Part shown: positions 1 to 49,365 of the stretch, piece by piece
Numbering within the stretch: position 1 is the stretch's first letter
Layout of the letters: each line of letters opens with the position of its first letter
The notes under the pieces: model-generated
Told to the model about the DNA's origin: nothing
Database searches by the model: none
What the model saw: the letters and a program-made list of their open reading frames with translations, nothing else
Made by a program: the position numbers and the translations under genes
Source of the DNA: an uncultured Candidatus Saccharibacteria bacterium
GTDB taxonomy: Bacteria > Patescibacteriota > WWE3 > UBA101185 > UBA10185
NCBI GenBank assembly: GCA_964643995.1
Contig: CAZXUJ010000003.1
Span: forward strand, 65,927 to 129,926
Direction of reading: 5' to 3'
DNA length: 64,000 nucleotides

Positions 1-3000
1 GTGGTGTTTAGTGCTACTTCATCTATGTTACCACTTGCCAGAGTTAATACTTGTCCAGATTCCGAATTCAAGACTGTAGCTCCATTAGCACCTTGTCTTA
101 AAGCATATCCTGTTAATCCTGATTGATCATAGTGTGAAAAATATGCTAAATCGCTTGCTCTCGCATCTATTCTGATACGCCCAATAATTGCAGTTTGATC
201 GGTATCTGCACCTGCATTTATAACTGTATCCCAGCCTGTGCCTATATTTAATGCTGAACTTGTTATGGAGTCACCGTTTCCAGTGGTCTCTGTTAACGCG
301 CCAATGTTTAAGGCTCGCACGTTACCTGTTATTGCACTACCACCAGTGTCAGAGACTGTTGCTGTAAAACTATCTATATCTATGATATTCCATGTCTCAG
401 AAGTGTCGTCAGCATTATTGTCTGTAAAAGTAGGCGAGATATCAACTATATTGCCTGATGCGTCATCTGCCGTGAAGGTGAGTTGTAAACTATCCACGCC
501 ATCGGTGGCTGATGTCCCAGCGTTTATTGTAAATACATCTACTGTAGGTGCTGCGGTTTTTGTAATGTTGGCTCCATCGCCTGCATCTAATGCTATGTTA
601 AAGTCTCCGCCTGAAAGATCTAAATCACCATCAGAAATTAATATATCACCTGCAGGTATAACTAATGCATCGGTGCCATCTGTTCCTCCTGTTGTTCTGA
701 CGTCTGTATCTGCATCGATTGTGAATACGTAATCTCCTGTGGAGTTAGCTCCAAATGTTATTGCTCCGGTTGTTGCTTCTCCGACGTCTATTGTTGCTGA
801 GTTTGCTCCTGCTATATCGCCCCCAGTAACTGTAAAGTCTCCAGCAATAGTTAGGTTCCCTGTATTGGTCAAAGCTAGTTGATCTGCTCCAGCTGAGTTT
901 TCGAATACAGCCAAATTAGTTGTTTGTGTACCATTTCCTTGCACCAGGAGTTGAATTTCATCGTTATCACCATCTATAGCTAGTTTGCTTGATAGTGACG
1001 CTGAACCACCTAGTATGACTTCATCTGTTGTGTTTGTTAAGTAGGCAAGTCCTGTGCCCTGTGTCCACTTGGAAGCACCTGCACCGATTGCTGCATCTAG
1101 GTCATCCAATACATCTTGCACGTTTGCAGCGTTAGAATTCGCAAATTCATCAAAAACCCCTACCAAATATGCTCCTGAATCTGTCGTTCCTGTTGTTTCT
1201 CCCAAAGATGTCGTACCTCCAAATATGATATCAGTTGCAGCAGTTATATTAAGATTATCTCCTGATGCTAGTGTCACATCCCCGCCACTCGCATCTATGC
1301 CTAGATCCCCATTTGTATCAACTGTAAAGCTTGCTTGTGTTCCATCTGCATATGATAGTCTTAACTGTTCTGTCGTTGCTAAAACCTCTAACTTTGCATC
1401 TGGTGTTGTATCCCCAAGACCAAGGTTTCCGTCTAAGTACGATTGCTCTGGCGCCGCTGAGTAGAGTGCATAGTTAGTTGCTCCATCAGTTATGTTATCT
1501 GCAATGTATATTCCAGAGTTGTTTGTTGCATTATATGCACCGGCCACATATATGGCATAGTTGTTATCAGCTAAATCTCCCGCTGTAAAAGTGCCGCCAA
1601 CATGTTGTGTTGTACCTGCAGTACCCAATGACCCTCCCGAAACCGCAGAAATTCCGAAATTGTAGTTTGTCAAATTTGCATTGCTGCTGTTAGTAGAAAG
1701 ATTTACAAATTGCCCTGCTATAGTTGTAAAAGTTGTAGAGCTGGCTAAATTTGTAATGGTTGGAGTATAGCTAACCAAGCCATAGACTCCTGTCTGTTCG
1801 ATAGTAATGCCTCCTGTACCTACAGTATCATTTATTGTTGGGGAACCGACTACATATGTTAATTCTCCATATGTGTTTTGTGTTAATGGTTCAGTATCGG
1901 AGTTTCCTAAATCCAAACCCGATACTTCTATAGTGTTATAGATCCCATAAGCGTTTAATCTTCCTTCACCAGAGCCAGAAGAGCTTAACATTACCGATGG
2001 ATCAAAATCCATGTCAAGATTTTGTATGGTTCTGGCAACTGCTGAGATAGTTCCAAGATTTAAGTCGTTGTCTAAGAATACGTTCGTTGAGTTTTCGTTT
2101 GCATTGTTATCCTGGTTAAATATAGCAATATAATCAGCGTCTTCTGCTGTTGAGCCGTTTACCTCGAGTTTTGTACCCGTAGTAGGAGTAGTTATTCCTA
2201 TTGCTACAGATCCGCTAGCATCAATTACAAATGGAGTTGTATCTGCTGCCACATCATTAACTACAAAACTGTTACCAGCTGTTGTGTTGGTCAAAGTTAG
2301 TAACTCGGCACTTTCGTCAAAGAATAGCGAGGAAGTGGAGTCAGTTCCGCCAACCGCTAAGTCGTCTGTTACCGATGTTAAGTATGTAACAGCGCCGCCA
2401 TCGGTCCACTTGGATCCACCTGCACCACCTGCACAGTTTCCTGACGATAAACAAACTGTACCTGTCTCGTTAGGGAATGTTATGGTTTTGTCTGAGCTTG
2501 TTGGATCGGTAAAGGCTATAAAAGTTTCTATTGAATCGTTGGTGCTACCCTCGACTTCAAAAGCGAAATCCCAGGCTTCACCAACTCTTAACGCGGTTTC
2601 AACAACAGTTCCATCTGCCGAGGTTACGTTTCCTAATTGAATACCATACATAGTATCGGCATCTCCGGTGTTAGCAGATGTAACGTCTATATTGATAGCT
2701 GAGATTGTATCAGCGTCGGTGTCGTTCACTAAGGTGAGGTTTAGATCAAATAATGTACCTGTATCTGAGGTTAGTGACCCAGTTGTACTAATGTTGGAGT
2801 CATCGTCTGTACCTAAAACTATGTCACCGGTGCCTGCTGGGGTTAGCGTAAGCGCAGTGTTTGTTCCGGTGGTTATGGTTCCTGTACCAGTAAAGTCAAG
2901 AGAGTTTACATCTAAAGCAGTACTTCCAATGAGTAGGCTGTTAGAAATTGTTAAATCACCTGAGTTACTCAAGGATAGCAGATCGGATCCAGCAGACGTC

Positions 3001-6000
3001 TCAAAAACCACTAGATTAGCCGTTTGAGTGCCGTTACCTTGTACTAGCAGCTGAATTTCATCATTATCCCCATCAACAGCTAATTTTGAAGATAGGGAAG
3101 CGCTACCTCCAATTATGACTTCGTCAGTTGTATTTGTTAGGTAAATAAGTCCTGTTCCTTGGGTGAATTTTGATGCACCAGCACCAATTGCAGCATCTAA
3201 GTCATCAAGCACATCTTGGACGTTTGCTCCGTTGGAGTTATTGAACTCATCAAAAGTACCGACTAAGTATGCACCCGAATCAGTTGCTCCTGTTGTTTCA
3301 CCAAGTGATGTTGTTCCGCCAAAAATAAGATCCGTGGCAGCTGTTAAGTTGAGATTGTCCCCTGAAGCCAAGGTCACATTTCCTCCTGTTACGTCAATTG
3401 TTAGATCACCGTTTGTATCCACGCTGAATCTGGCGTCTGCGGATCCATCTGCATAGGAAAGCCTTAGTTGTTCAGATGTGGCAAGCACTTCTAACTTGGC
3501 ATCAGGTGAGGTATCCGCTAGACCTATGGCACCACCAAAGTAGTTAACCGCTCCTGTATCTACCTGATATATACCGTAGTCATTAGTTATTGTTCCTGTC
3601 TCAGTTGAATCTGCTATGTATATTCCGTAGGCGTTTGTTATAGCGTTTGTAGCACTCAAATTTCTTATTTCGGAATATACTCCATATGCAGTTGTGATAG
3701 GGCCTGTGGACCCTTTGTCTACCAAAGCATATAAGCCATATGCTGAACTCAGTGTGCCTGTTCCTAGATGGTTAACGAAGGAGTTAAACCCTTTTGCATT
3801 GCCGGTGATATTGCTACTTACACTGGAATCTATAGTTGCATTACCGTCAACTCCTATATATGATGCAGAAGAGTCTGCCCCAGCTACTGCCCACGCTCTA
3901 GAAAATGTGCCATATAATGTACCCGATGTGTCAGAAAATTGTTCACTTATGTTAACCCCTGTTGTTGTACTAACTGAGCCCTGATCACCAAAAGCAGCAT
4001 TGGAGTTAACATCTAAGCTACCTCCCGAAATGGTAAAGGTATCTGTTGTACCAAAGGATATACTTGCGGTATCACTGTTTGTTGCTTCAAAGGTCAAGGT
4101 TGGGTTTGCTGACTGGTCCCCACCAAATAAGAATGTTCCAGCACTTTCATCAATGGAAAATATCGAGGAGGCTAGGGAAGTTCCACCTACAGCAAAGTCA
4201 TTTGTTGCTGTGGTAGGATATATGACACCGCCGCTGAGTGTCCATAAACCACCATTTGTTCCTGTTGCGGCATCGTACACGTCGTTGATAGCATCAACTA
4301 TTCCTTGTGTTAATGAGGCGTTTAAGGCATTATCCGCTAGAGCTAGAGGAAGTGAGGTACTTAATTGTGTGTCATCAAACAGTATGTCATCTGCTGAATT
4401 TAGTGTGATGTCGTTTGTTGCACCGTTTGAGGTTATACCGATTGTGGTACCTGATATAGCTATAGAATCACCGTCGTCTCCCAATGTAACAACTCCGTTT
4501 GCATCAAATGTTCCGTTAGCTGTGAGTGTACCAGTTGCTGTTGCAGTAGAATCGAAAGTGATAGCACTCGTTATGTTCCCTCCGCTAATGGCTATGTCTC
4601 CTGCTATTGTTAGGTTACCACCATTGGTTAGTGATAGTTGGTCAGTCCCAGCAGAATTTTCAAATACAACCAAATTGGTAGTCTGAGTGCCGTTACCTTG
4701 TACTAGCAATTGAATCTCATCATTATCCCCATCAACAGCTAATTTTGAAGATAGGGAAGCGCTACCCCCAATGATGACTTCGTCAGTCGTAGATGTGAGG
4801 TATATTAAACCGGTTCCTTGAGTCCACTTAGAGGCCCCAGAACCTACTGCAGCATCTAAATCGTTTAGGACAGCCTGCACATTTGTGCTGTTTGAGTTTG
4901 CAAATTCATCAAATACCCCAACTAGATATGCTCCAGAATCAGTTGCCCCTGTAGTTTCTCCTAAGGACGTAACCCCACCAAATACTAAATCAACAGCTGA
5001 GGAAAGGTTTAAGTTGTCATTTGTACCAATCGAAACTTCACCATTTCCCGCATCAATTGTTAGATTCCCACCTGCTGGGCCAGTTATGCTTGCCCCATCA
5101 TTTGCATCTACGAAAGTTAAATCTCCAGTGCTCCCAATATTTATGTAGTCAGTTTGTCCTATTCTGGCAGTGCCGTCATCGAGAAATTGTACGAATGCGG
5201 TACCTCCATCCTGAACAATAAAGTCTCCTGTCGAGTCTAAATCAAAAACTAAATTACTTGCTCCTAGATTTGTTTCAGTAGTGGCATCCAGATCTAAGGT
5301 GTCCTGAAGTTCGCCGTAGTCCAATATGTCATCGGCGATTGAAATGTTTACTTCATTCGCTGGAGAAGCACTCAAATTAAAATCGGTAGTAAAATCTAAT
5401 GTATCTACGTTGGCTCCAACAGGCGTATCATTGCTCTCTACATTGATAATTGCACTCGCCGCTCCAGAGTCGGTGGCGCATTCCCATGAGTCATTGGTTT
5501 CGTTCCATTTTAGTACCTCGCCATTAGCACACCCTTGTAACAAGCTAATCCCTCCTGAGAATACTTCAAGACCTGAGCCATTAGTTATGGTCGAGGAAAG
5601 TCCATTCGTAGCTGTTACGGTTTGTATAGTTAATGCTCCTGCAGATAGTGTCAGTCCGTTTCCGGTTATGTCATCTATAGTCTCAGAATTTAAAATTAGG
5701 CTGCTTGCAATTGTTAGGTCTCCAGTGTTGGAAAAATTGAACAAATCAGTTCCAGAAGAGTCCTCAAATGTAACTAAGTCCGCGGATTGAGTACTGTTTC
5801 CCTGTACTAAGAGTTGTATTTCATTCGAGTCGCCATCTACAGCTAGTTTACCTAGATTCGTATTTGAACCTATTGTTACGTTATCCGTTGAGGTTATAAG
5901 GTTTGCTATGTTACTGGTTGTTTGCCATGGCCCTGTGGAACCGGCACTTTGCCAAGATGCATTACCACTTGCATCTGATGTAAGAACGTAGCCATTCGCT

Positions 6001-7153
6001 GCACCAGTAGAAAGTATAAGTCCTGTGGTTGTGACTGTGCCACTGACATCTAGTGTTGAAGTGGGTGTATTAGTCCCCAATCCTAATCTATCAGTGCTGT
6101 CATTCCAGAAGAAGTTAACACTGTCTTGTGCAAAAGTGCTTCCATCCCCAAAATATACTCCGCCGCTTTCTGTTGTTAAACCCGATAAAACATTAATTTC
6201 ATCTGCTGTTGTGGTTACCTCGCTTCCAGCAATTTCGAACGTTCCGTCTAGATTGATAGTTCCTGTAATTTTCAGTGTGCCATTGTATGACAATTCTTCA
6301 GCAAGCCTCACTTCGGTCAAGCCATTATTGTTTACACTTACTACATCTCCTGCTATATCGAGTGAGTTTTCTAGGGTAGTTTCGGTTGTCTCGTCTATCT
6401 GGGCTAATCCTTCCAAACTTGCAACTCCAATTAAGTTGATACTTGGTGTTTGTACGCCTCCTGCTAGGTTAGCTTGCCCTGTAACATCAATTAATCCTGC
6501 TATAGAGACATCTTGACCAACAGTCAAATCTTGTTTTACGATTACATTTTGGAGGAACTCTGATGCTAAATGAAATACCATATCAAATTGTCCTAGTTTG
6601 ACGTTATAACCCAATACATCTGCCGATAATCCGGTTGAATCTACAATTAGGTTTGCTCTTTGAGCTTTTTGTTCGGCATAGCTCAGTACTCTATCTGGTT
6701 GGGAATTTCTCTTAAACCCAAATCCCATAATGGTTAATATGGTTAATGTTACTAACAAGAAAGCAGGTAGTTTGCTTCTTAAGTTTAATGGTTTAGAACT
6801 TGTGGCCTGTATTTTCACTTCTTCGGTAGCTGCCGGAAGTTTAACAGGCTGTTCTATGATTTTGTTTTGAAGGTTGTATTTAACTAATCGTTCTTTCTTG
6901 ATAAGTTTTTCTGTAGTTTCCTTTTGGATTTTCTCGAGACGTAATTCTTCTTTTAACTTTTGAATTTCTTCCAATCTAAAAACTCGGTAACCATTATCTT
7001 GTCTTATGGATGTGATTCGTAAATCTTTTTCATAGTTTCTTAAAGTTGAAGGTGATACTCCCAAAATTTGAGCAGCCTCGGATACATTTAGCATCTTGGA
7101 ATTATCAGCCTGATCTAAAGATTTATTATGTTGGACAGTATTCTTACTCATGA
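1..7153 (-). CDS. Giant membrane-anchored surface protein, 3' end beyond window start (at least 2384 aa). Has an N-terminal MerR-type HTH (about aa 10-55), a coiled/charged linker, one TM helix (LPAFLLVTLTILTIMGFGF) and a huge T/S/G/N/D-rich repetitive ectodomain with three near-identical ~110-aa repeats.
   Basis: Reverse-complement translation from the ATG at 7153-7151 (in-frame TAA 27 nt upstream) reads MSKNTVQHNKSLDQADNSKMLNVSEAAQILGVSPSTLRNYEKDLRITSIRQDNGYRVFRLEEIQKLKEELRL... with no stop down to position 1. The track omits edge-truncated ORFs. All plus-strand ORFs in 1-6500 are low-complexity antisense artefacts sharing repeated motifs. The repeat core DEVIIGGSASLSSKLAVDGDNDEIQLLVQGNGTQT occurs three times (DNA near-identical at ~3035-3135 and ~4695-4795, more diverged at ~960-1030). 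Confidence 0.8.
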
Positions 7154-27139: not shown

Positions 27140-27510
27140 ATTGTCACAGTGATAATCTATCGCTTGTATCACCAGCACCCCTGGTTCTTACAAGTCTATT
27201 TTGTGTAGTGGTGCGCGAAGGTGCGCATGCATTTGGGGCAATGCGATAAATGGGGTACCGCGTATCCACGGGACTTATGGACCCATGGCTTGGAGTGCTA
27301 CAGCATCCGCCTTTCAAGCAAATTGGTTTCTAACAGTTTGCATATGGGGAGCTGTCATACTAATTGGGATGGGATCACTGATATTAAACATTAGTGCCAT
27401 ATATGTATTACGTAGTTTAAGGCACTAGTGCTCTACCCTGTGAACTGTTTGTGGAACTGGACTTATTTATCCATTTATTTTCCACTCTCATTTCACAGGG
27501 CTTTTTTTTG
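27140..27510 (+). ncRNA. Candidate small structured RNA, ORF-poor and GC-elevated, bounded by hairpins. Identity unknown.
   Basis: Hairpin ATCACCAGAT...ATCCGGTGAT with a T-run at ~27067-27140. A terminal hairpin CCCTGTGAA...TTCACAGGG followed by CTTTTTTTTG at 27437-27510. The next gene's TATAAT follows immediately. Confidence 0.3.
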
Positions 27511-27525
27511 CTTTATAATTTTACC

Positions 27526-28368: not shown

Positions 28369-28659
28369 ATGTCTAGTTATCAAGCCGGGTGGGAACCAAC
28401 CTGGCAGTACATTATTCGTGGAAGAGGGACGAAACCCTCAAGAGTGTTGTTTGCAGTTGTCGGAGAAAACGAGCCAATGGCTCAACCAACGAGGGGATCT
28501 GGATTGCAGTTGCAGGAAATTACAATTGACGAGTTTAAACGCCAGTTCGCTCATTTCGAGACTGCTTTAGCAGTCGTGGAGCTGGCTTTGGCCAGAGCTA
28601 AGGATCAGCGCATGCGCTTGCCCAAGGTCTTCACGGCTAATGATCTCATTGTTGTTTAG
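28369..28659 (+). CDS. Hypothetical small protein (96 aa), GC-elevated
   Basis: RBS AAAAGGAG 8 nt upstream of the ATG. The alternative frame at 28364 has 3-nt spacing and is rejected. Confidence 0.6.
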   Translation: MSSYQAGWEPTWQYIIRGRGTKPSRVLFAVVGENEPMAQPTRGSGLQLQEITIDEFKRQFAHFETALAVVELALARAKDQRMRLPKVFTANDLIVV

Positions 28660-28751
28660 TTTTTGCGCCAAAGAAGTTTACTACTGAAGAGTAGCAAATA
28701 TAAATTTCTTTGGAGCATCCCTTTTCTCATCATGTTACAATCAAGCTTGGT

Positions 28752-30371
28752 ATGTCTCTCAAAGTTTTAATCAATGGTCCAAAGGGAAGCGGTAAGTCTA
28801 CTTTGGCAAAAAACATTTATAAATTCCACCATCCTAAAGATACTTGGGTTATTTTTGATAGAGGTGTTGCCGGTGAGGAAAGACACTCTCCTCGAGTAGT
28901 TTCGAAGAAAGGTGATGCCACCCAAACTTACACCTTGGCTAATCCGTTGCTGGATGTTGTGCTGCGTATAAGAAGGTTTCTTGAGGTTCATAGATATTTC
29001 AAAGTTCTCGAATACTTCATGTTTTTAGTTACTCCGATCTATGCCTACGCGCAGTTGAACTTTTCCAAAACCATTGATGCTAAGTACTTGGTTAATGCTC
29101 AGCCACTATACTTAAGAAATCTTAAAAGACTCGGATCTTTAGCAAAAATTGGGGCACTAAGAAAACTTATGGCATGGCCGTTTCAATATGACTTTATTGT
29201 TAATGTCTCTATTAGATCAAAGGAGATATCAAAGAGGCTTCAAATACGAAAGTATGCAGAGGCGTTGCCGTACTTTGTTGAATTTGCCCGAGAAGAAATA
29301 AATTTTCAGAAGTATGTTTTGTCTAAATATTCCAATGTTGTAAACATCGATGGCTATAAGCCCTCTTATGACCTGTCCTCAGAATTTGCAGTCTACACTG
29401 AGTTAGTAGGTACTTTTTATGATGTATTAGCGAAAACGAAGCAGACATACCCAGAAACCTTTTTTATCGAGCGTCCCAACAATATCGATACTCCGGAGGT
29501 TACAAGTTATTTTGAAACCAATATTCAACCTCATGTTATCGAGCTCTTTGGTGACTCCAACACTTTTGTGAACTATGTTCTTCATTCTTATCACAGGCAA
29601 CATATATTTGTTTTTACACATGTCCTTTCTCATAACGCTGACTTCCCACTTGCTGATGAACTCGCTTCCTTAATGGTTGGAGTCTGGGGTTATTTGCTTT
29701 GGTTTGATGATGTTGTGGATAATGCGGCTACCCGCAACAATAAAGCTTCTTTAGCAGGTGTTAATACGTACAATGCAGATGCACACTTCTCTCGTGTAAA
29801 AGCATTATCCGAGGAACTTTTTGGTCGTAATCAAACTCTATGGTTATCCAAAGCTGTAAGTATAACCAAGGAATCTATGTTAAAGCATGGTTCATTGGGC
29901 TTTGATGCCCCTTATATTGATGTAGTATGTAACTACCTTGACCGTGGGTATTCATATTCTGTGTGGCCTGCTTCGATACTATCTCGAGGGTTAGGATTTC
30001 AAGATAAATTCCCCCTACATAAGTTGAATGTCTACAAACATTTTGGGGGTCAGCTGATAAACGATATTCGCGACATTAACCTTGGGAATTTTGACGATAT
30101 AAGGGTTGGTCAGGTGACAATACCTTTGTTACTTTTGCGTGACTCCTGTAGTAGCGCAGAGCGTACCAAACTTTCCTCTTTGTTCGGTCATGTTCTTGGG
30201 GAGTCCGAAAAATCCTTACTCACGAGTTTGTTTTCCAAATACAACATTCTTCAAAAGACGCAACATATAGCTAATTTCTACTTCGCTGAAGCACTGGGTA
30301 TAGTTGATAGTTCTAGTGTTATGGAACAGTCTCCTATAAAAATATGGTTGCAAGAGCGTTGCAAGAGTTAG
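28752..30371 (+). CDS. Two-domain protein. N-terminal P-loop kinase-like domain (NMP/deoxynucleoside-kinase-like). C-terminal all-helical domain with DDxxD and NDxxD motifs resembling a class I isoprenoid synthase fold. Alternative TTG start at 28710.
   Basis: Walker A LINGPKGSGKSTLAKN. DDVVD at about aa 329. QLINDIRDINLGNFDD about 116 aa later. No close family recognised by eye. Confidence 0.6.
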   Translation: MSLKVLINGPKGSGKSTLAKNIYKFHHPKDTWVIFDRGVAGEERHSPRVVSKKGDATQTYTLANPLLDVVLRIRRFLEVHRYFKVLEYFMFLVTPIYAYAQLNFSKTIDAKYLVNAQPLYLRNLKRLGSLAKIGALRKLMAWPFQYDFIVNVSIRSKEISKRLQIRKYAEALPYFVEFAREEINFQKYVLSKYSNVVNIDGYKPSYDLSSEFAVYTELVGTFYDVLAKTKQTYPETFFIERPNNIDTPEVTSYFETNIQPHVIELFGDSNTFVNYVLHSYHRQHIFVFTHVLSHNADFPLADELASLMVGVWGYLLWFDDVVDNAATRNNKASLAGVNTYNADAHFSRVKALSEELFGRNQTLWLSKAVSITKESMLKHGSLGFDAPYIDVVCNYLDRGYSYSVWPASILSRGLGFQDKFPLHKLNVYKHFGGQLINDIRDINLGNFDDIRVGQVTIPLLLLRDSCSSAERTKLSSLFGHVLGESEKSLLTSLFSKYNILQKTQHIANFYFAEALGIVDSSSVMEQSPIKIWLQERCKS

Positions 30372-30547
30372 TCTTCAGATTTCTTTTCAATTATTGTCGT
30401 AATTATTTTACTCAAATATAATTTTAACGCTATAGTAGCGGTATATAAGAAAATTGTTGACAGTACATTTTTTATATAGTAACGTTTACTTATTGAGAAA
30501 TTAATAGACTCTTTCTGCCAAACAAGAGCCAAGATCCCGCAGGAAGA

Positions 30548-30580
30548 GTGTCAACTTCTTTCGAGATGTTGGCTTTTTTT
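30548..30580 (+). terminator. Rho-independent terminator (CAACTTCT-TTCG-AGATGTTG followed by GCTTTTTTTGTTTT)
   Basis: Stem with a UUCG loop followed by a T-run. Lies 180 nt after the kinase-fusion gene. A TTGACA promoter-like element sits at 30452. Confidence 0.5.
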
Positions 30581-30639
30581 GTTTTCTGAGTGTTTGTACA
30601 AATGTACTCGGTAGTTTGTTTTTGTTTTTTGCACCTTAT

Positions 30640-31488
30640 TATTCGAATAGCCATTCTTCTAAGTCTCGAAAGAGGGTAGTAGTCCGAAAAGTATTTTTTT
30701 GACTGCTATCCTTCTTTTGAGAGTTTGCCTGCAGCTTGCTGTAGTGCCGTAAGCAGTGATGCTTCGGCTGAGTATAGTCTTGGAATTGTTTGAACTTTAT
30801 CGAGCCTGGGAGTGTCACAACTCCGATATAGCGGCTGGGTTTAGTCTCATGCTCACTGTATATTCGATTTGACCTAGTTCCGTTCTGAGCTTGCTTGCAG
30901 TTCATCTAGAAGGATGCGGTGATCGACCGCAAAGACCATATCTATGGTTTTGATCGTTCAGCTAATGTTGCTGAGCGTGCTCCGTGTACATAATGTACCG
31001 CTCCGACCAGACTGAATGAACTTCGTTGTTTTCAGCCCCCTGGTCGACCTACAGTCACGCGAAACGCTGTCATAAGTACGAACGATAACCGAAGCTTCCC
31101 TTGCGAGCGCATTGTTTTCTTAGCGTCTCGGTCATTCCTGAAGCGGGTGAAACTCTCTTGAAGCTCTGTTGCACAAAGGTGCCACTTCATCTGAAGTTTC
31201 CCCAGAAGAGGATCATGAATCTTTTCTACTTGCCCTGAAAGATAAGATTAAAAAGTAAGGTCTGCCCAAATGCACAACAAATCTTTGTGAGCATGTTCCT
31301 GCTATCAGCCTCATCTTTGTCAAACGACTTGGTTATTATGAATATTCATAGTAGTCAGATTGTTTGGCAAAGGTGGGGCTTTTTCTTTTTTTGATGGTTT
31401 GAAAAAATAGGGAATAACAAGATTTGTTATTTTTGAGACTAAGAATATACCTTAGCGCCCTGTGGATCTCAAACTTTAAACATTCAAA
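30640..31488. other. ORF-free, GC-elevated ~850 nt segment with multiple stable-tetraloop hairpin motifs. Candidate large structured ncRNA or a degraded foreign insertion.
   Basis: No ORF of 60 aa or more on either strand across 30905-31488. GC is visibly higher than the flanks. UUCG and GNRA tetraloops sit in GC stems on both strands (for example GCTTCGGC at ~30760 on plus; GCTTCGGT and CGCAAG on minus at ~31090-31110). Confidence 0.35.
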
Positions 31489-33064: not shown

Positions 33065-34381
33065 ATGAACGGAACACTTAGAATTCATGGTGGAAAGAAA
33101 CTAAAGGGTGAGGTTGTCCCCATTCCAAATAAGAACGCTATTGTAGCCACATTGCCTGCTTGCATACTTTCTGATGAAACAATTGTTTATTATGATTTAC
33201 CAGACACCTCCGATGTTCAAAAAATATTAAATATTCTACGTAAGTTGGGTGCTGACGTCGTCTCAGACAACCTATCCAAAGTAACAATCTGTTGTAAAAA
33301 CGTTAAAAGTTACGAAATTGATTACGAACTTGGTTCACAATTCAGAGCATCAATAATGTTTGCTGGTCCGTTGTTAGCTCGTTTTGGTCGAGTTTCCGTA
33401 CCAATGCCGGGGGGTTGTGTTCTTGGTGCGCGATCAATTGCTGCTCATATAGACTCTTTTAGCAAAGTAGGAATTAAAGTAGAGTACAAAAAGGACACTA
33501 TAGAATTTATTGCTCCCAAAAAACCACTTAAAGATGAGCTGATTTGGCAAACAGAGGCCAGTGTTACTGCAACAGAAAATGTTGCTATGTATTTAGCAGG
33601 TGTTTCAGGCAATGTGACTATAATTAACGCCGCCTCTGAACCTCATGTTTCACAACTTTTACAAATGCTACAAACCATGGGTGCGAGGATAGACGGTATA
33701 GGATCTAATCGAATTACTATCGAGGGTAATTCTAAGCTTGGTACCTGCGCGTACCATCCAGAACCAGACCAAGTAGATATTGCAGGTTTTATCGTGGCTG
33801 CAGCTATAACCAAGGGAAAGATCAAAATCAAGGGTGCTAACAAGTTTGACATCGTAGGTGGTCTTCTCAATGTATTTGAAAAGTTTAACATCGCAATAGA
33901 TCCAATAGGTGACGATTTAGTTGTTGATGGCTCAGGAGATATTTGGATAGATCTAGAATCATCCGGTTTTCCGCTTGCTGGTAAAGATCTCCCAAAACTT
34001 AATCCACAACCATGGCCGTCTTTTCCTGTAGATGTTTTGCCAGTTATGGCCACCTTAGCTTGCAAAATGGATGGAAAGCTACTTTTACAGAATTGGATGT
34101 ATGAAACCGGATTGGACTTTATACGTGAACTTAACAAACTTGGTGCCAATATCTTTATGTGCGACCCCCAAAGAGTCATTGTTAACGGTCCTATAGAATT
34201 TAAGGGAGGTGGTATTGTTTCTCCTGGGATTATCCAAGCCTGTAAAGCAATATTTCTCGCGGCACTTTGTGACGACGTTGTTACTGTCTTGCACGGTACC
34301 GATGTTTTGAAGAGACGTTATCCTGACATTGTCAGTGTTTATAAGAGTCTTGGTGCTGATATTGAAGAAGTCAAAAATTGA
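33065..34381 (+). CDS. murA: UDP-N-acetylglucosamine 1-carboxyvinyltransferase
   Basis: 438 aa with EPSP-synthase-fold MurA similarity throughout (for example GGCVLGARSIAAHID, active-site Cys region). Confidence 0.9.
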   Translation: MNGTLRIHGGKKLKGEVVPIPNKNAIVATLPACILSDETIVYYDLPDTSDVQKILNILRKLGADVVSDNLSKVTICCKNVKSYEIDYELGSQFRASIMFAGPLLARFGRVSVPMPGGCVLGARSIAAHIDSFSKVGIKVEYKKDTIEFIAPKKPLKDELIWQTEASVTATENVAMYLAGVSGNVTIINAASEPHVSQLLQMLQTMGARIDGIGSNRITIEGNSKLGTCAYHPEPDQVDIAGFIVAAAITKGKIKIKGANKFDIVGGLLNVFEKFNIAIDPIGDDLVVDGSGDIWIDLESSGFPLAGKDLPKLNPQPWPSFPVDVLPVMATLACKMDGKLLLQNWMYETGLDFIRELNKLGANIFMCDPQRVIVNGPIEFKGGGIVSPGIIQACKAIFLAALCDDVVTVLHGTDVLKRRYPDIVSVYKSLGADIEEVKN

Positions 34382-34390
34382 GCTTAAGTT

Positions 34391-35428
34391 ATGACATCAG
34401 ATCTTTTAAGGGAGTTACAGTCTACTGGGGCTCACGTGGTCTGTGATGAACCATTAGCCAAATATACAAGTCTTAAGGTTGGTGGCCCCGCTGATTATTT
34501 TGCCAAAGTCTCAGACCAAGAAACTTTAACCAAACTCTATACAAAAGCATATGAGATTAAACTTCCAATCTTTACCTTGGGTATGGGCACGAACATACTG
34601 GTGGGAGACAAAGGTATACGAGGATTGGTTATCAAAAATTCAGTTACTGACATTAAAATAGGCAACAAGTTCCCTCTAAAAATACAAAAATCACAAAAAC
34701 AGCGTCGACAGGAAACACATTGGAAACCAGGTTTTCTTAAACTATCTGACATTAACTTCGATATTTCTGCAACCGAAGGTGTTGAGGTAACAATCTCGGC
34801 CGGAACACCGCTAGCATATGCAATTACCTTCTTATTAGACAAGGGTATCACTGGCCTAGAGTACTTTGCAGGAATTCCAGGCACGTTTGGCGGGGCCGTA
34901 TGGAACAATGTACACGGTGCTGATTGGTTGCTAGAAGACTTTCTGAAAGAGGTAGAGGTGATGCTTCCTGATGGCTCAGTTCAAATTCTTTCAAAGCAAG
35001 ACCTTGGGTTACATTATGATTTTTCAATTTTTCACAGTAATGCGTCGCTTATACTTTCTGCCACATTGATTCTGCCCTTAGGTGACAAAAAGCAAGCTCA
35101 GTATGTCGCTGAGGAATGGGCTAAGCGCAAATCCTTCCAGCCTAAAAACACAGCGGGGTGTACTTTTGGCAATATTTCCGAAGAACAGCGCCTCCAAGCC
35201 CATCTTGAAAATTGTGGCACAGGTTACATAGTTGACAGAGTGCTTAATGCACGAGGTAAAAGAGTTGGTAACGCATGGATTTCCGAAAAACACTGTAATT
35301 TTATTGAAACCTCTCCTGGAGCGACTGCTAAAGATGTTTCGCATTTAGTCGACTATATCAAGTTGCGCACCTATGCGGAACTTGGCATTTGGTTACATGA
35401 AGAAATTTTGAGAGTAGGGGAGTTTTAG
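34391..35428 (+). CDS. murB: UDP-N-acetylenolpyruvoylglucosamine reductase
   Basis: GGPADYF FAD-binding motif, LGMGTNILV. Follows murA. Contains an internal insertion. Confidence 0.85.
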   Translation: MTSDLLRELQSTGAHVVCDEPLAKYTSLKVGGPADYFAKVSDQETLTKLYTKAYEIKLPIFTLGMGTNILVGDKGIRGLVIKNSVTDIKIGNKFPLKIQKSQKQRRQETHWKPGFLKLSDINFDISATEGVEVTISAGTPLAYAITFLLDKGITGLEYFAGIPGTFGGAVWNNVHGADWLLEDFLKEVEVMLPDGSVQILSKQDLGLHYDFSIFHSNASLILSATLILPLGDKKQAQYVAEEWAKRKSFQPKNTAGCTFGNISEEQRLQAHLENCGTGYIVDRVLNARGKRVGNAWISEKHCNFIETSPGATAKDVSHLVDYIKLRTYAELGIWLHEEILRVGEF

Positions 35429-43625: not shown

Positions 43626-45134
43626 ATGAGCAATAAAGAATGGCCGTCATATTTTAAAGATCGTTTGATAATTGATAACCTGGACTCGAACGTTGGTATA
43701 GCAACCCTGTGGATGCCTAAGGAAAATGTAGCAGAGGTTCTTAAACCCGGTTCATTTTCTGTGTGTGGGCAACTTTATACCAAACGTGGAATTTCCCCTC
43801 TTTTACGTAATGTTTTAGCAAACCCAAAAATAAGATATTTGGTTGTTTGTGGGCTAGATAGACAGGGGAGCGGTGAGGCGCTAATTAAATACTTTGAAAA
43901 TGGCGTAGTGCCGGAGGAACATGCCGGAGATGTGAAAGGTTGGAAAATTATAGATGACGATGAGGCTTTGCTAGATAAAGAGATTACCCTAGAGGCTTTA
44001 GAGTTAGTAAGGCATCATGTCAAGATTATTGATTTACGAAAAAAACCTTTAGAGGTAATCGCAGAGCATATTGCCACATTAGAAAAACTTCCACCATTTG
44101 CTGAACCTCAATACTTTCCAGAGGTGTTACCACCTGTTGTTGAGCAATACCCGTCTGATATGTCTGTTTTTAAGATCCGTCGAGATTACATTGGGGATTC
44201 CTGGATAGACATACTGAAAGTTCTTCACCGCTTTGGGCATCAAATTCCTGGAATGTATGGCAACGTGAAGCTAGTTCATAACATCTGCGTCGTTATTGAA
44301 AAAGAAGATCCCGATGGTCCTAAGTTTTATGATTTTCTAAATTTCAAAAAAGATGCTCTAGAAAAGTATATCGAAGGTTTTTTTGACAAAGATAAACGTG
44401 ATGAACCCTATACATATGGTGAGCGACTTTTTGATTGGGATGGCTTAGATCAAGTAGCTATCATGACGGAGAAGTTGCAGAGATTTCCTTACGATCGTGG
44501 AGCATTAGCAGTCCTATGGAAGCCTCATAAAGACAACTTTCCACCTGAAAAAAGCCACATCCAGAAAAACGGTCAAACTAAAGGTTGGCGAGTGCCTTGT
44601 TTAGTTATGGTTGCAGGTCAATGCTTAGGTGATAGCTTTAATATGACTGCCTTTTTTAGAAGTAACGATATGTTTGGGGCATGGCCTCTTAATGCATTTG
44701 CACTACGTACTCTGCAAAAGCAAATCTCCCAGAAGATAGGGAAGAGTTTGGGATCATTGACCACTATATCTCACGTGGCTGAGTTGTATGAAATCGATTG
44801 GGACTCTACGACTAAGATCATCCAAGAAAACAACAAACTTGATAGAACATGCATGTATGACTCCAGAAGCTATTACATAGTTGAGGTAGTAGGAGAGGAG
44901 ATTCATCTGACTTTTATGACTCCTGACGGTGCTCAGGAAATTGCTAAGTTTATTGAGGATGGTAAAAAACCTAAAATTGCTCGTGATATGTGTGCGATGG
45001 CAATAAGAGATATGTTAATCAGTGATTTAGGTGCCGCAGCAGATTTAGGTAGGCAGTTGGCAAAAGCAGAGGCCGCAGTGAAGTTGGGCCTAAAGTTTGA
45101 GCAAGACAATTTACTATCAATGAAGCTCAAGTAG
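43626..45134 (+). CDS. Thymidylate synthase (ThyA)-like protein, divergent, with a ~180-aa N-terminal and ~55-aa C-terminal extension
   Basis: RVPCLVMVAGQCLGDSFNMTAFFRSNDMFGAWPLNAFALRTLQ aligns to the ThyA catalytic Cys (PCH), RSAD and FLGxPFNIASYALL region. GMYGN resembles GxxYGxQWR. Adjacent to dCMP deaminase. Confidence 0.6.
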   Translation: MSNKEWPSYFKDRLIIDNLDSNVGIATLWMPKENVAEVLKPGSFSVCGQLYTKRGISPLLRNVLANPKIRYLVVCGLDRQGSGEALIKYFENGVVPEEHAGDVKGWKIIDDDEALLDKEITLEALELVRHHVKIIDLRKKPLEVIAEHIATLEKLPPFAEPQYFPEVLPPVVEQYPSDMSVFKIRRDYIGDSWIDILKVLHRFGHQIPGMYGNVKLVHNICVVIEKEDPDGPKFYDFLNFKKDALEKYIEGFFDKDKRDEPYTYGERLFDWDGLDQVAIMTEKLQRFPYDRGALAVLWKPHKDNFPPEKSHIQKNGQTKGWRVPCLVMVAGQCLGDSFNMTAFFRSNDMFGAWPLNAFALRTLQKQISQKIGKSLGSLTTISHVAELYEIDWDSTTKIIQENNKLDRTCMYDSRSYYIVEVVGEEIHLTFMTPDGAQEIAKFIEDGKKPKIARDMCAMAIRDMLISDLGAAADLGRQLAKAEAAVKLGLKFEQDNLLSMKLK

Positions 45135-46124: not shown

Positions 46125-47117
46125 ATGGCAAAAAATAATTATAAAACACCTGATGCAAAAGAATTACTAGATGCGGGTGTGCATTTTGGACATCAAGTTA
46201 GAAGATGGCATCCTAAGATGGAGCCTTATATTTTCACGGTCAAGAAAAATATTCATATTATTGATTTGGAAAAGACTGAACAAATGCTTAAAGAGGCATG
46301 TGACTACCTTCACGGTGTTGCGGCTAGAGGTGGGCAGATTATCTTCGTAGGTACTAAAAAGCAGGCTCGTGACATGATCAAGCTTGAAGCTAAGAGAAGC
46401 GGTGCAATGTACATTAATGAGCGTTGGTTGGGTGGCATTATGACCAATCACGAGGTTATAAAGCGCAACATGAGGAAACTCACTGATTTAATGCATCGCC
46501 GTGAAATTGGGGATCTTATGAGATATACCAAAAAAGAACGTTTGTTAATTGATAGGGAGATCGATAAGCTCGAAAAGTATGTTGGTGGTATTGTTGGGTT
46601 GCATAAGATTCCAGAGGCTTTGTTTATTATTGATGCTCGCCGAGAAAAAACTGCAATTCGTGAGGCCGCTAATGTTGGAGCTAAGGTTGTTGCACTAGTT
46701 GACACAAACACCGACCCAACTGGTATCGATATGGTAATACCAGGCAATGATGACGGTATAAGATCTATTGCAACTGTTCTAAATGCTATAAGTGATGCTA
46801 TTGAGGCTGGTTATAAAGAATTTGCTGACAAGTTACAAAAAGGTGAGGCGACTGTTGAGCAAAAGAAGGATGAACCTGTGACTAAGGTTGTTACACCTAA
46901 AGTGTCACGCTCCGAATCGGTTGTATCCACCAAAGGCGCTAAAGATGCTGTCGTTGATCCGCTAGATATAGTTCCACTAGTAGTTGATGACGCTGAGATA
47001 GTTGAAGAGTTGGGTATAAAAGTCGAAATACCCGTTGTAAATGAAGAAAAAGAGGGCGAAGTAAAGATAAAAAAAAGCAAAGCCAATGTAACGAAAAAAG
47101 CAAAGAAGGGTAAATAG
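46125..47117 (+). CDS. rpsB: 30S ribosomal protein S2 with a ~100-aa Lys/Glu/Val-rich C-terminal extension
   Basis: Conserved S2 N-terminus (LLDAGVHFGHQVRRWHPKM). Low-complexity tail. Confidence 0.9.
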   Translation: MAKNNYKTPDAKELLDAGVHFGHQVRRWHPKMEPYIFTVKKNIHIIDLEKTEQMLKEACDYLHGVAARGGQIIFVGTKKQARDMIKLEAKRSGAMYINERWLGGIMTNHEVIKRNMRKLTDLMHRREIGDLMRYTKKERLLIDREIDKLEKYVGGIVGLHKIPEALFIIDARREKTAIREAANVGAKVVALVDTNTDPTGIDMVIPGNDDGIRSIATVLNAISDAIEAGYKEFADKLQKGEATVEQKKDEPVTKVVTPKVSRSESVVSTKGAKDAVVDPLDIVPLVVDDAEIVEELGIKVEIPVVNEEKEGEVKIKKSKANVTKKAKKGK

Positions 47118-47144
47118 TCAGTTCGTATATTTTTAAGGAGAATT

Positions 47145-47600
47145 ATGGAATTAAATATTCAGGATATAAAAAAACTTAGAGAAGAGACCGGAGCAGGTGT
47201 CTTGGATGCCAAACAGGCCCTACAAGATAGCGCTGGGGATTACGAAACGGCTAAGGCTCAATTGGCGGCCAAAGGGTTAGCAAAAGCTGATAAGAAGGCT
47301 GCTAGGGTAACTAAAGACGGTTTAATTTACTCATACATCCATGGGAATGGGAAAATAGGTAGTATGGTTTATGTTGCATGCGAGACTGATTTTGTAGCTA
47401 AGACAGAAGATTTTAAGAATCTATGTCATGCAGTAGCTTTGCAGGTTTGTTCGGGTGACTATCAAGATGTTGAGGAGTTAGTGAATGACGATTACATCCG
47501 TGACCCAAGCAAAACTATTCTTTCATTGGTCAAAGAAACAATTGCAAAAGTTGGAGAAAACATAGAGGTAAAGAGTTTTAGCAAACTGGCAGTTAATTAG
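47145..47600 (+). CDS. tsf: Elongation factor Ts (short form)
   Basis: UBA-like N-terminus IKKLREETGAGVLDAKQAL. Follows rpsB. Confidence 0.85.
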   Translation: MELNIQDIKKLREETGAGVLDAKQALQDSAGDYETAKAQLAAKGLAKADKKAARVTKDGLIYSYIHGNGKIGSMVYVACETDFVAKTEDFKNLCHAVALQVCSGDYQDVEELVNDDYIRDPSKTILSLVKETIAKVGENIEVKSFSKLAVN

Positions 47601-47639
47601 CTGGAAAAAGTATCGTATTTAACGTAATATCTTAAATGT

Positions 47640-48194
47640 ATGCAAACTTCTGAGTTGAAGAAAAAACTTGATTCCGCTATAGACTTTCTAGAATCCGAAC
47701 TATCTCAAATTCGTACTGGACGCGTGACAACAACCTTGTTGGACGTTGTATCTATTGAGGCCTATGGAACAAGAATGACCTTACGTGAGGTAGGGACCAT
47801 AAGTGTTTTAGATCCCCAAACTTTGCAGGTGACCCCTTGGGATAAAAGTCTACTAGAACCTATTTCCAAAGCTATCAGGGAAAGTGAACTCGGTATAAAT
47901 CCAGTGTCTAAAAGTGATTTAGTATTAATTCCGGTGCCCCCACTTACCGAGGATCGTCGCAAGGAGTTTGCTAAAATGGCTACTCTAAAAGTCGAGAATG
48001 TTAAGAATACCATTCGTGGAGTGCGTCAAGAAGCAATGAAGGACATTGATGCCGATTTTGCTAATAAGGCTTTTGGTGAGGACGACAAATTTAGATTTAA
48101 GGACGAGGTCGAAGACACTGTGAAAAAATACACAGAAAAAGCCGAAGAATTGGGCGAAGCCAAAAAGACAGATATAATGTCTGTAGGCAAGTAA
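47640..48194 (+). CDS. frr: Ribosome recycling factor
   Basis: IRTGRVTTTLLDVVSIEAYG and PVPPLTEDRRKEF motifs. Confidence 0.9.
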   Translation: MQTSELKKKLDSAIDFLESELSQIRTGRVTTTLLDVVSIEAYGTRMTLREVGTISVLDPQTLQVTPWDKSLLEPISKAIRESELGINPVSKSDLVLIPVPPLTEDRRKEFAKMATLKVENVKNTIRGVRQEAMKDIDADFANKAFGEDDKFRFKDEVEDTVKKYTEKAEELGEAKKTDIMSVGK

Positions 48195-48204
48195 GGAATT
48201 TTTT

Positions 48205-49365
48205 ATGCTAACTTTACTGCTTTTTATCTTAATACTCTCGATCTTAGTCATTATTCATGAATTTGGACATTTTTATGTTGCTAAACGTGCCGGTGTTAGG
48301 GTAGAAGAATTTGGGTTTGGGCTCCCTCCTCGCTTACTTGGGAAAAAAATAGGTGAGACTCTTTATTCCATAAATCTATTACCTTTTGGCGGTTTTGTTA
48401 AACTTGCTGGAGAAGATGAGCCGGATGAAACCAGTTATGAAACTGCCTCAAAAGATCCTCGAAATTTTATGTCTAAGACAGTACTTCAACGATCTGCTAT
48501 TGTCTTGGCAGGAATTGTGATGAATAGTTTGTTGGCAGTACTCCTATACTATGTTTTTTTTATATTCACTGGTTTTAAATCTCTCACTATACCAAATTTT
48601 TTTGATTATAGATTTAGATTTGGAACCTCGGAGGAGATTAACACTGTAGTATTGGGGTATACCGTTGATTCCTCGTCTGAGGCTTTGGTTTCAGTAGGCG
48701 AAGCTATTTTGGAAGTTGATGGTAAGGCTGTTTACAGCGTTTCAGATATACGGGAGTCGGTAAAATATAAGGCTAATCAAGACGTGAATCTTTTACTCAT
48801 GAATGTTAGTTCTGTAAATCGTGAGTTGCGCTCGACTACTGTCAAACCAACAGCAAACGATGCCGGAGAGGGTGTTTTAGGTGTATACATAGGTGAGGCC
48901 ACCGTTCTTAACTATTCAAACACCAAGATTTTATCAGGACCAATGCATGCTTATAATATTTTGGCATATTCCAAATTTACATTGGGTAGGTTAGTGGGGG
49001 AGTCTGTTAGTCAACGCTCTGTTGAGCCTGTTTCTGCCAGTGTCTCTGGTCCAGTAGGAATAATGTCGGTTGTTGGTGGTATTTTGGATCAATCATCGGG
49101 TATATCGTCAGCCCCGGATCGTTTTAAAACTGTTGCTTTAAGTTTAATTGATCTCACTGCCTTACTTTCGGTAAGCTTGGCATTTATAAATGCAATACCA
49201 TTTCCAGCTTTGGATGGAGGACGCTTAGCATTTATTTTGCTTGAAGGAATTCGCGGTAAAAGAATATCTCCTAAATATGAGGTAGCGTTTCATCAAGCGG
49301 GCATGATTCTGCTTTTAGGACTTTTGGTGATGGTTACAATACGAGATGTAGCCCGTATTTTTTAA
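48205..49365 (+). CDS. rseP: RIP metalloprotease RseP (site-2 protease, M50) with a PDZ domain
   Basis: HEFGHFYVAKRAG HExxH in TM1. Central PDZ-like region. C-terminal LDGG motif. Confidence 0.85.
   Translation: MLTLLLFILILSILVIIHEFGHFYVAKRAGVRVEEFGFGLPPRLLGKKIGETLYSINLLPFGGFVKLAGEDEPDETSYETASKDPRNFMSKTVLQRSAIVLAGIVMNSLLAVLLYYVFFIFTGFKSLTIPNFFDYRFRFGTSEEINTVVLGYTVDSSSEALVSVGEAILEVDGKAVYSVSDIRESVKYKANQDVNLLLMNVSSVNRELRSTTVKPTANDAGEGVLGVYIGEATVLNYSNTKILSGPMHAYNILAYSKFTLGRLVGESVSQRSVEPVSASVSGPVGIMSVVGGILDQSSGISSAPDRFKTVALSLIDLTALLSVSLAFINAIPFPALDGGRLAFILLEGIRGKRISPKYEVAFHQAGMILLLGLLVMVTIRDVARIF

Follow-up and report, generated by a model that had tools for sequence, protein, structure and literature searches.

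The window analysed here, a stretch of 64,000 nucleotides from an uncultured Candidatus Saccharibacteria bacterium, carries on its forward strand a gene whose product joins an N-terminal P-loop domain to a C-terminal domain resembling the trans-isoprenyl diphosphate synthases (trans-IPPS); two smaller genes, termed A and B, precede it and a candidate non-coding RNA follows (Table 1). One long forward-strand open reading frame (ORF) in the ORF listing comprises positions 28710 to 30371 and would encode 553 aa if a TTG start were counted; the start in all orthologues is the ATG at 28752, from which the protein is numbered here, and MSLKVLINGPKG... opens the protein of 539 aa. The domain boundary was placed at ~aa 245, next to a variable linker (aa 229-237) and close to the position from which outside homologues align (~aa 248). 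Direct translation confirmed the three motifs named in the initial annotation, i.e. the Walker A motif GPKGSGKST and the Asp-rich motifs DDVVD and NDIRD, the latter two being the equivalents of the first (FARM) and second aspartate-rich motif (SARM) of prenyl synthases. The pattern of their spacing was likewise recovered with slightly different figures: DDVVD lies ~75 residues into the C-terminal domain (previously ~80) and NDIRD 118 residues further on (previously ~116).

Table 1. Positions of the cassette genes, their domains and motifs, and associated features (window coordinates unless a locus is named)
Feature	Position	Strand	Basis or remark
Promoter-like site TTCACA-16-TATAAT, 11/12	27492..27519	+	directly upstream of gene A
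Gene A, 261 aa	27526..28311	+	ORF listing, hydrophobicity, orthologues
Gene B, 96 aa, soluble	28369..28659	+	ORF listing, orthologues
Fusion gene, 539 aa and stop codon	28752..30371	+	ORF listing, orthologue starts
N-terminal P-loop domain, aa 1-245	28752..29486	+	
Walker A GPKGSGKST, aa 9-17	28776..28802	+	direct translation
C-terminal diverged trans-IPPS-like domain, aa 246-539	29487..30368	+	
FARM equivalent DDVVD, aa 319-323 (D319, D320, D323), then R328	29706..29720	+	direct translation, alignment
SARM equivalent NDIRD, aa 437-441 (N437, D438, D441)	30060..30074	+	direct translation, alignment
Candidate structured non-coding RNA, ~950 nt	30441-31400; L005:15271-16245; L001:6618-7654	+	
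NUDIX genes	L008:9025-9402; L010:4269-4766; L011:5538-6041; L012:2708-3169		neighbours of NDxKD IPPS-like genes

The joining of both halves in one protein, as proposed in the initial annotation, was found in every lineage as a single ORF of 539-540 aa. Among 5.8 billion proteins the family comprises three clusters, the protein itself, P0002 (80% identity) and P0003 (62%), whose assemblies are independent of each other (NCBI, ENA and Logan); a gene-fusion or assembly artefact is ruled out by the occurrence of the single ORF in all of these. The genome scan of 185,579 GTDB species representatives revealed no locus of the family, and no homologue of the fusion protein was present in 50,697 phage and 72,556 plasmid records. 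Synonymous divergence between the lineages is saturated (pS 0.61-0.80), and the corresponding non-synonymous values (pN) amount to 0.08-0.21 for gene A, 0.16-0.32 for gene B and 0.12-0.27 for the fusion gene, with the N-terminal domain of the latter under tighter constraint than the C-terminal domain (pN 0.07 versus 0.17 in comparison with the orthologous locus L005). All three genes are thus under strong purifying selection and functional, as documented by low pN versus saturated pS and by the conserved gene order in independent assemblies, and the fusion of a P-loop domain with a diverged prenyl-synthase domain is a real, conserved and lineage-restricted gene. The literature search yielded no described kinase-prenyl synthase (P-loop/IPPS) fusion; the fold is already known, the architecture is new and the reaction is probably new too.

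Profile comparison places the C-terminal domain in the trans-IPPS superfamily (PF00348), as a very divergent representative. The exhaustive HMMER search with a profile of the three family sequences retrieved 87 proteins at E ≤ 1e-3, all of them aligned to aa 248-538 only; the best outside matches were PF00348 proteins, and the Pfam cut-off was reached by all nine of the matches P0005-P0013. A profile of 29 sequences matched the geranylgeranyl diphosphate (GGPP), hexaprenyl, octaprenyl and decaprenyl diphosphate synthases of the PDB at E 5e-31 to 1e-24, and the hhalign comparison of the fusion sub-clade with canonical IPPS gave a probability of 98.2% (E 3.5e-14, 218 columns): Based on these two results, homology at the level of the superfamily is established. 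Pairwise tblastn comparison with standalone relatives gave E values of 1e-14 to 1e-16, the single sequence matched an octaprenyl diphosphate synthase of the PDB in the SARM region (E 0.027), and a word-indexed search for homologues that started from the alignment of 29 sequences added almost nothing new. One of the relatives, P0004 (334 aa, E 3e-47), is apparently a standalone copy of the domain, its completeness being uncertain on a contig of 1.15 kb. The all-helical character of the C-terminal half, as claimed in the initial annotation, is also predicted, at low to moderate confidence: The AlphaFold2 model of the full-length protein, calculated from the three-sequence alignment (mean predicted local distance difference test value, pLDDT, 48.8), is helical over aa 248-538, and the top 50 Foldseek matches of this pLDDT-49 model in the PDB were all polyprenyl synthases, with a TM-score of only ~0.36 and thus as weak support.

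DDVVD and NDIRD occupy invariant columns of the alignment with bona fide polyprenyl synthases and are for this reason beyond chance resemblance. The comparison with the FARM and SARM of prenyltransferases could therefore be retained, whereas the parallel drawn at the same time to the DDxxD/NSE motifs of terpene synthases could not: no terpene-synthase Pfam family matched the fusion protein at E ≤ 1, and NDIRDINLG deviates from the NSE/DTE pattern (N/D)Dxx(S/T)xxxE by an Asp at the Ser/Thr position and a Gly at the Glu position. The first motif follows the pattern DDx2-4D plus Arg (D319-D320-V-V-D323 ... R328); the second departs from DDxxD in that its first residue is Asn, a trait common to all of the divergent clade described below. 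Plant chrysanthemyl diphosphate synthase, an enzyme derived from farnesyl diphosphate (FPP) synthase that catalyses irregular coupling, is reported to have NDXXD instead of DDXXD at its second motif as well (reportedly Rivera et al. 2001), but differs from the fusion protein in that the other catalytic Lys and Arg residues and the second site for isopentenyl diphosphate (IPP) or dimethylallyl diphosphate (DMAPP) are kept and no fusion is present; specific kinship is not apparent. Throughout the 29 sequences (~20% identity to the query), D319, D320, D323, Q434, D438, D441 and D449 are invariant, and W312, R328, G336, S375, Y395, R398, N437, T456 and P458 are nearly so. Generally, the conserved Asp/Arg/Gln set holds the cluster of three Mg2+ ions and the allylic diphosphate in the structures of FPP and GGPP synthases. 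As judged from the alignment, the fusion protein has kept the residues by which the allylic (donor) substrate is held through its Mg2+-diphosphate cluster, namely D319, D320, D323, R328, Q434, N437, D438, D441 and D449. The GGPP synthase of P. horikoshii (1wy0) and the octaprenyl diphosphate synthase of E. coli (3wjk/5ze6) share with it the homologous domain, predicted to be all-helical in the fusion protein, and the FARM DDxxD with its Arg; the distance between the motifs is alike (118 aa versus 127 in the canonical protein P0091), and the Gln before the SARM, the downstream Asp and TxP are conserved.

In contrast, the basic residues used by the canonical enzymes for IPP binding and for closure of the active site (lid) are replaced almost throughout, according to this alignment and the PDB alignments. 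The canonical GGKRxRP reads HVTKEKP in the divergent clade and SYHRQHIF in the fusion protein; RRG is changed to RxG and RNN, respectively, with loss of the second Arg in the latter, and KT to FH and YS with loss of the Lys; GKxxGxDxxxGKxTxP corresponds to RxxFSDIRNGxVTIP in the clade and to LGNFDDIRVGQVTIP in the fusion protein, where both Lys residues of GK...GKxT have given way to LG-N...GQVT and the segment following the SARM has lost 5-6 residues in length. The NDxxD form of the SARM, the additional P-loop domain of 245 aa and a Pfam score below the cut-off further set the fusion protein apart from canonical trans-IPPS. The presence of the bulky residues W312, Y314, W317 and F318 just before the FARM argues for a short hydrophobic pocket. 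Based on these features, we infer that the C-terminal domain binds a Mg-diphosphate ester and probably ionises it, likely in a short pocket and without chain elongation. Since the DDxxD form of the second motif and the basic residues of the IPP site are both missing, the fusion protein is not placed in the chain-elongating class and should not be annotated as GGPP or FPP synthase; at present, the protein and its relatives are either unannotated or labelled 'geranylgeranyl pyrophosphate synthase', a label that is probably wrong for the clade.

The replacement of nearly every canonical IPP-binding residue is also an objection to a salvage and elongation route, in which the C-terminal domain would be a working short-chain (FPP/GGPP) synthase supplied by the P-loop half as isopentenyl- or dimethylallyl-phosphate kinase, and the cell would thereby obtain the primer for undecaprenyl-phosphate synthesis. 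The route accounts for the intact FARM, at whose position -5 an aromatic residue is found like that of bacterial FPP synthases, and for the demand of the cell: MurA and MurB are encoded at 33065-35428, so that peptidoglycan precursors are made and a polyprenyl carrier is needed. The premise of the initial annotation that members of the candidate phyla radiation (CPR) generally lack isoprenoid biosynthesis was overstated: mevalonate-pathway genes, type I IPP isomerase (IDI-I) and trans-IPPS have been reported from many CPR, with a sparse occurrence in Parcubacteria (PMC6107057), and the trans-IPPS genes known from CPR count in favour of this route. On the other hand, a housekeeping synthase would be expected in related Patescibacteria, which is at odds with a family of three members and no GTDB representative, and the vicinity contains neither IDI nor UppS nor any pathway gene. 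In consequence, a functional elongating synthase at this locus is regarded as quite unlikely.

The closest relatives outside the family are uncharacterised IPPS-like proteins of ~340 aa (P0005-P0030, E 1e-13 to 1e-7) with the second motif NDxKD; this clade matches the NCBIfam equivalogs of prenyl synthases at E 1e-8 to 1e-11, as compared with ~1e-50 for the canonical proteins P0090 and P0091. The likeness of the fusion protein to the clade extends over the segments DDIxDxDxxRxG, GQxxNDxKD and SDIRNGxVTIP, the missing GGKRxR and a phosphate-handling partner. A NUDIX gene adjoins the standalone IPPS-like gene in four of four loci examined (Table 1); a CMAS/UbiE-like S-adenosylmethionine (SAM)-dependent methyltransferase gene is present in two of the four, and a GT2 glycosyltransferase gene is situated directly downstream in two and ~1 kb off in a third. 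In two other relatives, P0075 and P0086, an N-terminal NUDIX domain is fused to the same fold (FARM LLDDIVDN..., SARM GQLINDYFD); the NUDIX part of P0086 also matches plant Nudix hydrolase 1. The interpretation of the NUDIX neighbours as type-1 IPP isomerase (IDI-1) was provisionally rejected, as the NCBIfam matches were to hydrolases of MutT/NudI/RppH/YtkD type and included no IDI model. The clade differs from the fusion protein in its NUDIX partner, often accompanied by SAM methyltransferases and GT2, in place of a P-loop domain and two orphan neighbours. This arrangement suggests that the divergent fold works together with a phosphate-handling partner: because NUDIX is repeatedly adjacent or fused, and fused at the same N-terminal position, the P-loop half might act at the phosphate end of whatever substrate the C-terminal half uses.

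The neighbourhoods of the NUDIX-fused relatives bear on a different explanation. The gene of P0086, which overlaps with a radical-SAM gene, has NACHT NTPase and TIR-domain genes at its flanks, and that of P0075 is found near GIY-YIG and HSDR_N-like genes. If transferred to the window, these surroundings would make the cassette an accessory or defence-like conflict module acting on nucleotides or a nucleotide-derived signal, with the products of genes A and B as membrane effector and regulator. The extremely patchy distribution, the orphan status of all three cassette proteins and the position beside a tRNA cluster with a 3.6-kb insertion in one lineage would be in accordance with such a role. 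It is opposed by the lack of any PADLOC or PHROG family for the three proteins beyond the P-loop, by the missing homologues in the phage and plasmid records mentioned above, by the order of the two upstream LytR_C genes, which is stable in three of three lineages, and by the host-like GC content of the fusion gene. A conflict module is considered unlikely.

The N-terminal domain opens with a Walker A motif that conforms to GxxxxGK[ST], and aa 1-245 contain neither a Walker B motif of the form hhhhDE nor a GTPase NKxD motif; an ABC signature ahead of a Walker B is absent too, the sole LSxxx-like string (LSSEF, aa 208-212) being positioned beyond the final strand. The profiles of ABC_tran and AAA cover aa 5-36 only and remain below their cut-offs. 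A generic AAA or ABC ATPase, the case that the initial annotation had set against its own reading, is thus not indicated, since hhhhDE and an ABC signature in the right order are both missing. The sub-threshold matches are confined to aa 1-45 (ABC_tran, AAA_18, AAA_33, NACHT, thymidylate and deoxynucleoside monophosphate kinases, adenosine phosphosulfate (APS) kinase), and hhalign comparisons with E. coli adenylate kinase and with the KTI12/AAA_33-like kinase from locus L012 aligned 20-25 residues at the P-loop only; no outside homologue of the domain was retrieved, the exhaustive profile search included. Beyond the P-loop, the putative strand TWVIFD36R directly follows helix 1, the putative strand YDFIVNVSI precedes an invariant basic LID-like stretch (R155, E158, K161, R162, R166), and the last strand-helix unit, NVVNIDG..., reads NVVNIDGYKPSYDLSSEF; an unusual helical insertion of ~60 residues (aa 62-107) is present, and the domain is strongly basic with 37 Lys and Arg versus 22 Asp and Glu residues.

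This order of elements is typical of small-molecule P-loop kinases of the nucleoside monophosphate (NMP) kinase, APS kinase and shikimate kinase type. With NMP, deoxynucleoside, APS, shikimate, gluconate and animal phosphomevalonate kinases the domain has in common the N-terminal Walker A, the Asp at the end of a putative strand after helix 1, the LID-like segment, the putative final strand-helix unit and the missing catalytic Glu after Walker B; it deviates from them by the ~60-residue insertion, the third strand LVNAQ and a profile match limited to the P-loop. As a Walker B, an ordered ABC signature and NKxD are all lacking, the kinase-type division of P-loop proteins fits best, and a kinase-like phosphotransferase is the leading candidate for this domain, with about as much speaking for it as against it. 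Two less favoured alternatives are a P-loop that would hold the prenyl diphosphate itself and a plain NTPase switch. The former has its precedent in MiaA and SelU, in which the Walker A loop holds a prenyl diphosphate (DMAPP or geranyl diphosphate) rather than ATP; the basic nature of the N-terminal domain is as expected for a binder of RNA or another polyanion. Unlike these enzymes, the fusion protein has no match to IPPT (PF01715) at E ≤ 1 and no motif of the DSxQ(V/I)Y type.

Genes A and B, which the initial annotation had listed as a membrane-protein ORF of 261 aa and a GC-elevated ORF of 96 aa, are real and conserved in the same order and spacing in three of three lineages. Gene A encodes a two-helix membrane hairpin (~aa 28-66) followed by a soluble C-terminal region of ~190 aa, and its orthologues measure 259-299 aa. 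Gene B is preceded by an AGGAG ribosome-binding site and terminates 92 nt upstream of the fusion gene, with which it co-varies in presence; its orthologues of 93-97 aa share an invariant N-terminal segment QxGWxPxW (W8, W12), and despite a GC content of 49.1% versus 38.7% for the window the gene still evolves as coding sequence (pN 0.16, pS 0.61 against L005). No Pfam, NCBIfam or PDB profile matched the proteins of A and B, PADLOC and PHROGs gave nothing credible, the homologue search with gene A yielded none beyond its orthologues in the three lineages, and relatives of either protein were not detectable outside these lineages. The promoter-like site ahead of gene A is part of a 75-nt block that is conserved to 85-88% in the orthologous loci, and the stretch from A through B to the fusion gene is free of predicted forward-strand terminators. 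A, B and the fusion gene thus likely form an operon, in line with the small operon proposed previously and with the conserved gene order. Farther upstream of gene A, the intergenic region contains a GC-rich stretch (GTGCGCGAAGGTGCGCATGC..., 27200-27330, forward strand) without conservation in the orthologous loci, which there extends to 27435-27509 only.

From these components, a two-domain enzyme encoded in a three-gene cassette may be proposed that combines an ATP-binding P-loop module with a diphosphate-binding, non-elongating prenyl-synthase fold; this proposal is given somewhat less than an even chance. In such an enzyme, the C-terminal domain would bind a diphosphate ester, such as a short prenyl diphosphate or something similar, and either ionise it or use it as donor in a transfer, but would not elongate it. 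The P-loop domain, by a weaker inference, would represent a KG-class phosphotransferase-like module that binds ATP, a role argued from the Walker A motif, TWVIFD36R, the LID-like residues R155, K161, R162 and R166 and NVVNIDG.... It might act on the phosphate end of the substrate of the C-terminal domain, in the simplest case by converting a scavenged prenyl monophosphate into the diphosphate.

Several observations weigh against this proposal. In the N-terminal domain, no Pfam, NCBIfam, PHROGs, PADLOC or PDB profile matched past ~aa 45, so that the earlier designation 'NMP/deoxynucleoside-kinase-type' is backed by the Walker A motif only; the third strand, which usually carries a Walker-B/DR(Y/H)/ERS-type sequence, reads LVNAQ without an acidic residue; and AlphaFold2 assigned the domain pLDDT values of 25-40 in the full-length model and 38.6 when modelled alone, both models being too poor to establish its fold class. 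The single-sequence score of the protein against PF00348 is 13.6 bits at a cut-off of 27 (E 0.04, aa 287-334, FARM region). In all three lineages the cassette is without an adjoining isoprenoid gene (IDI, UppS, methylerythritol phosphate or mevalonate pathway, UbiA), the rarity of the family is too great for a housekeeping function, and something other than a prenyl compound may be the substrate, given that some of the NUDIX-fused relatives reside in conflict-system neighbourhoods. Finally, the NDxxD second motif and the lost Lys and Arg residues could equally mean an inactive or purely binding domain. The latter possibility, a degenerate binding or regulatory module attached to an unrelated NTPase and comparable to the small subunits of heteromeric prenyl synthases, would be consistent with the loss of several catalytic Lys and Arg residues, the Asn in place of the first SARM Asp and the score under the Pfam threshold. 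It is countered by the invariance of the metal-binding Asp residues, Q434 and D449, and the near-invariance of R328, in 29 sequences of such low identity, and by a pN of the C-terminal domain far below pS; moreover, non-catalytic subunits of prenyl synthases typically lose their Asp-rich motifs. A non-catalytic helical domain is accordingly rated as highly improbable.

If the C-terminal domain is catalytic and non-elongating, as preferred here, its acceptor may be sought among the cassette proteins. The IPPS-fold enzymes ComQ, PalQ and XiaM prenylate Trp or indole acceptors with a kept FARM and an altered second motif, and the genes of ComQ and PalQ adjoin that of the small peptide which they modify (PMC12510300, PMC10853753), an arrangement resembled by the fusion gene and the adjoining 96-aa gene B; Ord1 chains were also among the PDB matches of the C-terminal domain. 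A strict counterpart of these systems, in which the C-terminal domain would prenylate the Trp of protein B or another non-IPP acceptor and the P-loop would supply or gate the donor, would explain why a small gene with the invariant pair W8/W12 lies directly upstream and co-varies with the fusion gene, and the underlying chemistry of a retained FARM with a deviating second motif is documented (PMC12510300, PMC10853753). Nevertheless, this equivalence appears very doubtful: none of ComQ, XiaM, PalQ and Ord1 has a P-loop domain, the likeness stays at the level of the superfamily without specific similarity to ComQ (no direct test was made), protein B is larger than the known prenylated peptides, shows no leader-core layout and has its conserved Trp residues at the N-terminus, and the cassette includes neither a protease nor an exporter.

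Independent of such a strict counterpart, protein B, in which the Trp pair is invariant, would be the obvious candidate for the substrate of the proposed two-domain enzyme and membrane protein A that for its anchor; B qualifies as a candidate prenyl acceptor since ComQ, PalQ and XiaM modify Trp or indole acceptors encoded next door. A fully elaborated version would be a novel route for prenyl or other diphosphates in a host-dependent CPR bacterium: the ATP-driven P-loop domain re-activates a scavenged monophosphate, the prenyl-synthase fold transfers the group to the 96-aa Trp protein or to a membrane target held by protein A, and the NDxxD clade, with its P-loop or NUDIX partners, makes up a functional class of its own among proteins of the class I isoprenoid-synthase fold. 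This version is speculative and, taken as a whole, unlikely.

Downstream of the fusion gene, a 1.1-kb gap beside a cluster of four tRNA genes contains the candidate structured RNA. Its identity amounts to 87.8% to L005 and 75.2% to L001-L004, as compared with 75.9% and 68.7% for the flanking coding DNA. Substitutions are distributed over the three phases as 18/20/17 without codon periodicity (fusion gene: 274/96/50), indels of 1, 4, 7 and 8 nt occur, and no long ORF is shared. The minimum free energy of folding deviates from that of shuffled sequences by z = -11.0 on the forward strand versus -2.4 on the minus strand, 18 compensatory pair changes were counted in the three sequences, and the 3' end is formed by a 36-bp hairpin with a U-run. 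The 5' part (30458-30590, forward strand) represents a separate conserved module that comprises an invariant promoter-like block TTGACA...TATATAGTAACG and a hairpin GCCAAGAUCCCGCAGGAAGAG...GAUGUUGGC followed by U7, similar to a terminator or attenuator; a poorly conserved spacer separates it from the core of ~750 nt. No match to Rfam was obtained even at E ≤ 10, nor any in the JGI metagenome contigs, IMG/VR and the phage and plasmid collections. In the P0002 lineage, an insertion of 3.6 kb (L005:11637-15201, minus strand) with ORFs of 978 and 207 aa, neither with a Pfam hit on record, lies between the fusion gene and the RNA candidate: Because it parts the two, the RNA candidate is regarded as an independent unit and the site downstream of the fusion gene as variable.

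The remaining window is that of an ordinary bacterial chromosome (F-type ATP synthase, L1, NusG, TopA, S2-Tsf-RRF-RseP, DnaX, RecR; further CysRS, HisRS, CTP synthase, MurA, MurB, Fmt), and the flanking order of the cassette is stable in three of three lineages, with the two divergently oriented LytR_C genes further upstream. The CPR-like host assumed in the initial annotation agrees with the best matches of TopA, which shares 59-62% identity with two metagenome-assembled genomes of uncultured Candidatus Saccharibacteria and 45-48% with other Patescibacteria; no close species representative of the host was found. In bacteria, pyrH, uppS and cdsA are commonly located between frr and rseP. The rpsB-tsf-frr-rseP cluster of the window (46125-49362, forward strand) lacks all three at this position, and no UppS was seen among the scanned window ORFs, which were not the complete set. 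At the left end, a minus-strand ORF (3-7151) extends beyond the window and codes for at least 2,383 aa; its product consists of an N-terminal helix-turn-helix-like segment, one hydrophobic helix and a long region rich in Ser, Thr, Gly, Ala and Asn. This giant ORF accounts for two features of the first 7 kb, a higher GC content and a series of antisense ORFs that share one frame; a non-coding or recoded nature of this part was rejected. A protein of 502 aa (43626-45134, forward strand) shows an unusual pairing of two parts, an N-terminal MtrA-like segment (PF04208, E 3e-9) and a domain resembling thymidylate synthase (PF00303, E 4e-8).

With only three lineages the family is tiny, which limits its general importance. 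If the proposed two-domain enzyme is correct, it would nonetheless constitute a new architecture for a much-studied fold, a phosphate-handling domain joined to a prenyl-synthase fold without an IPP site, and would point to an uncharacterised clade with the NDxxD motif and NUDIX or P-loop partners that performs chemistry other than elongation. It would also bear on the question of how reduced, host-dependent CPR obtain or re-use their isoprenoid carriers.

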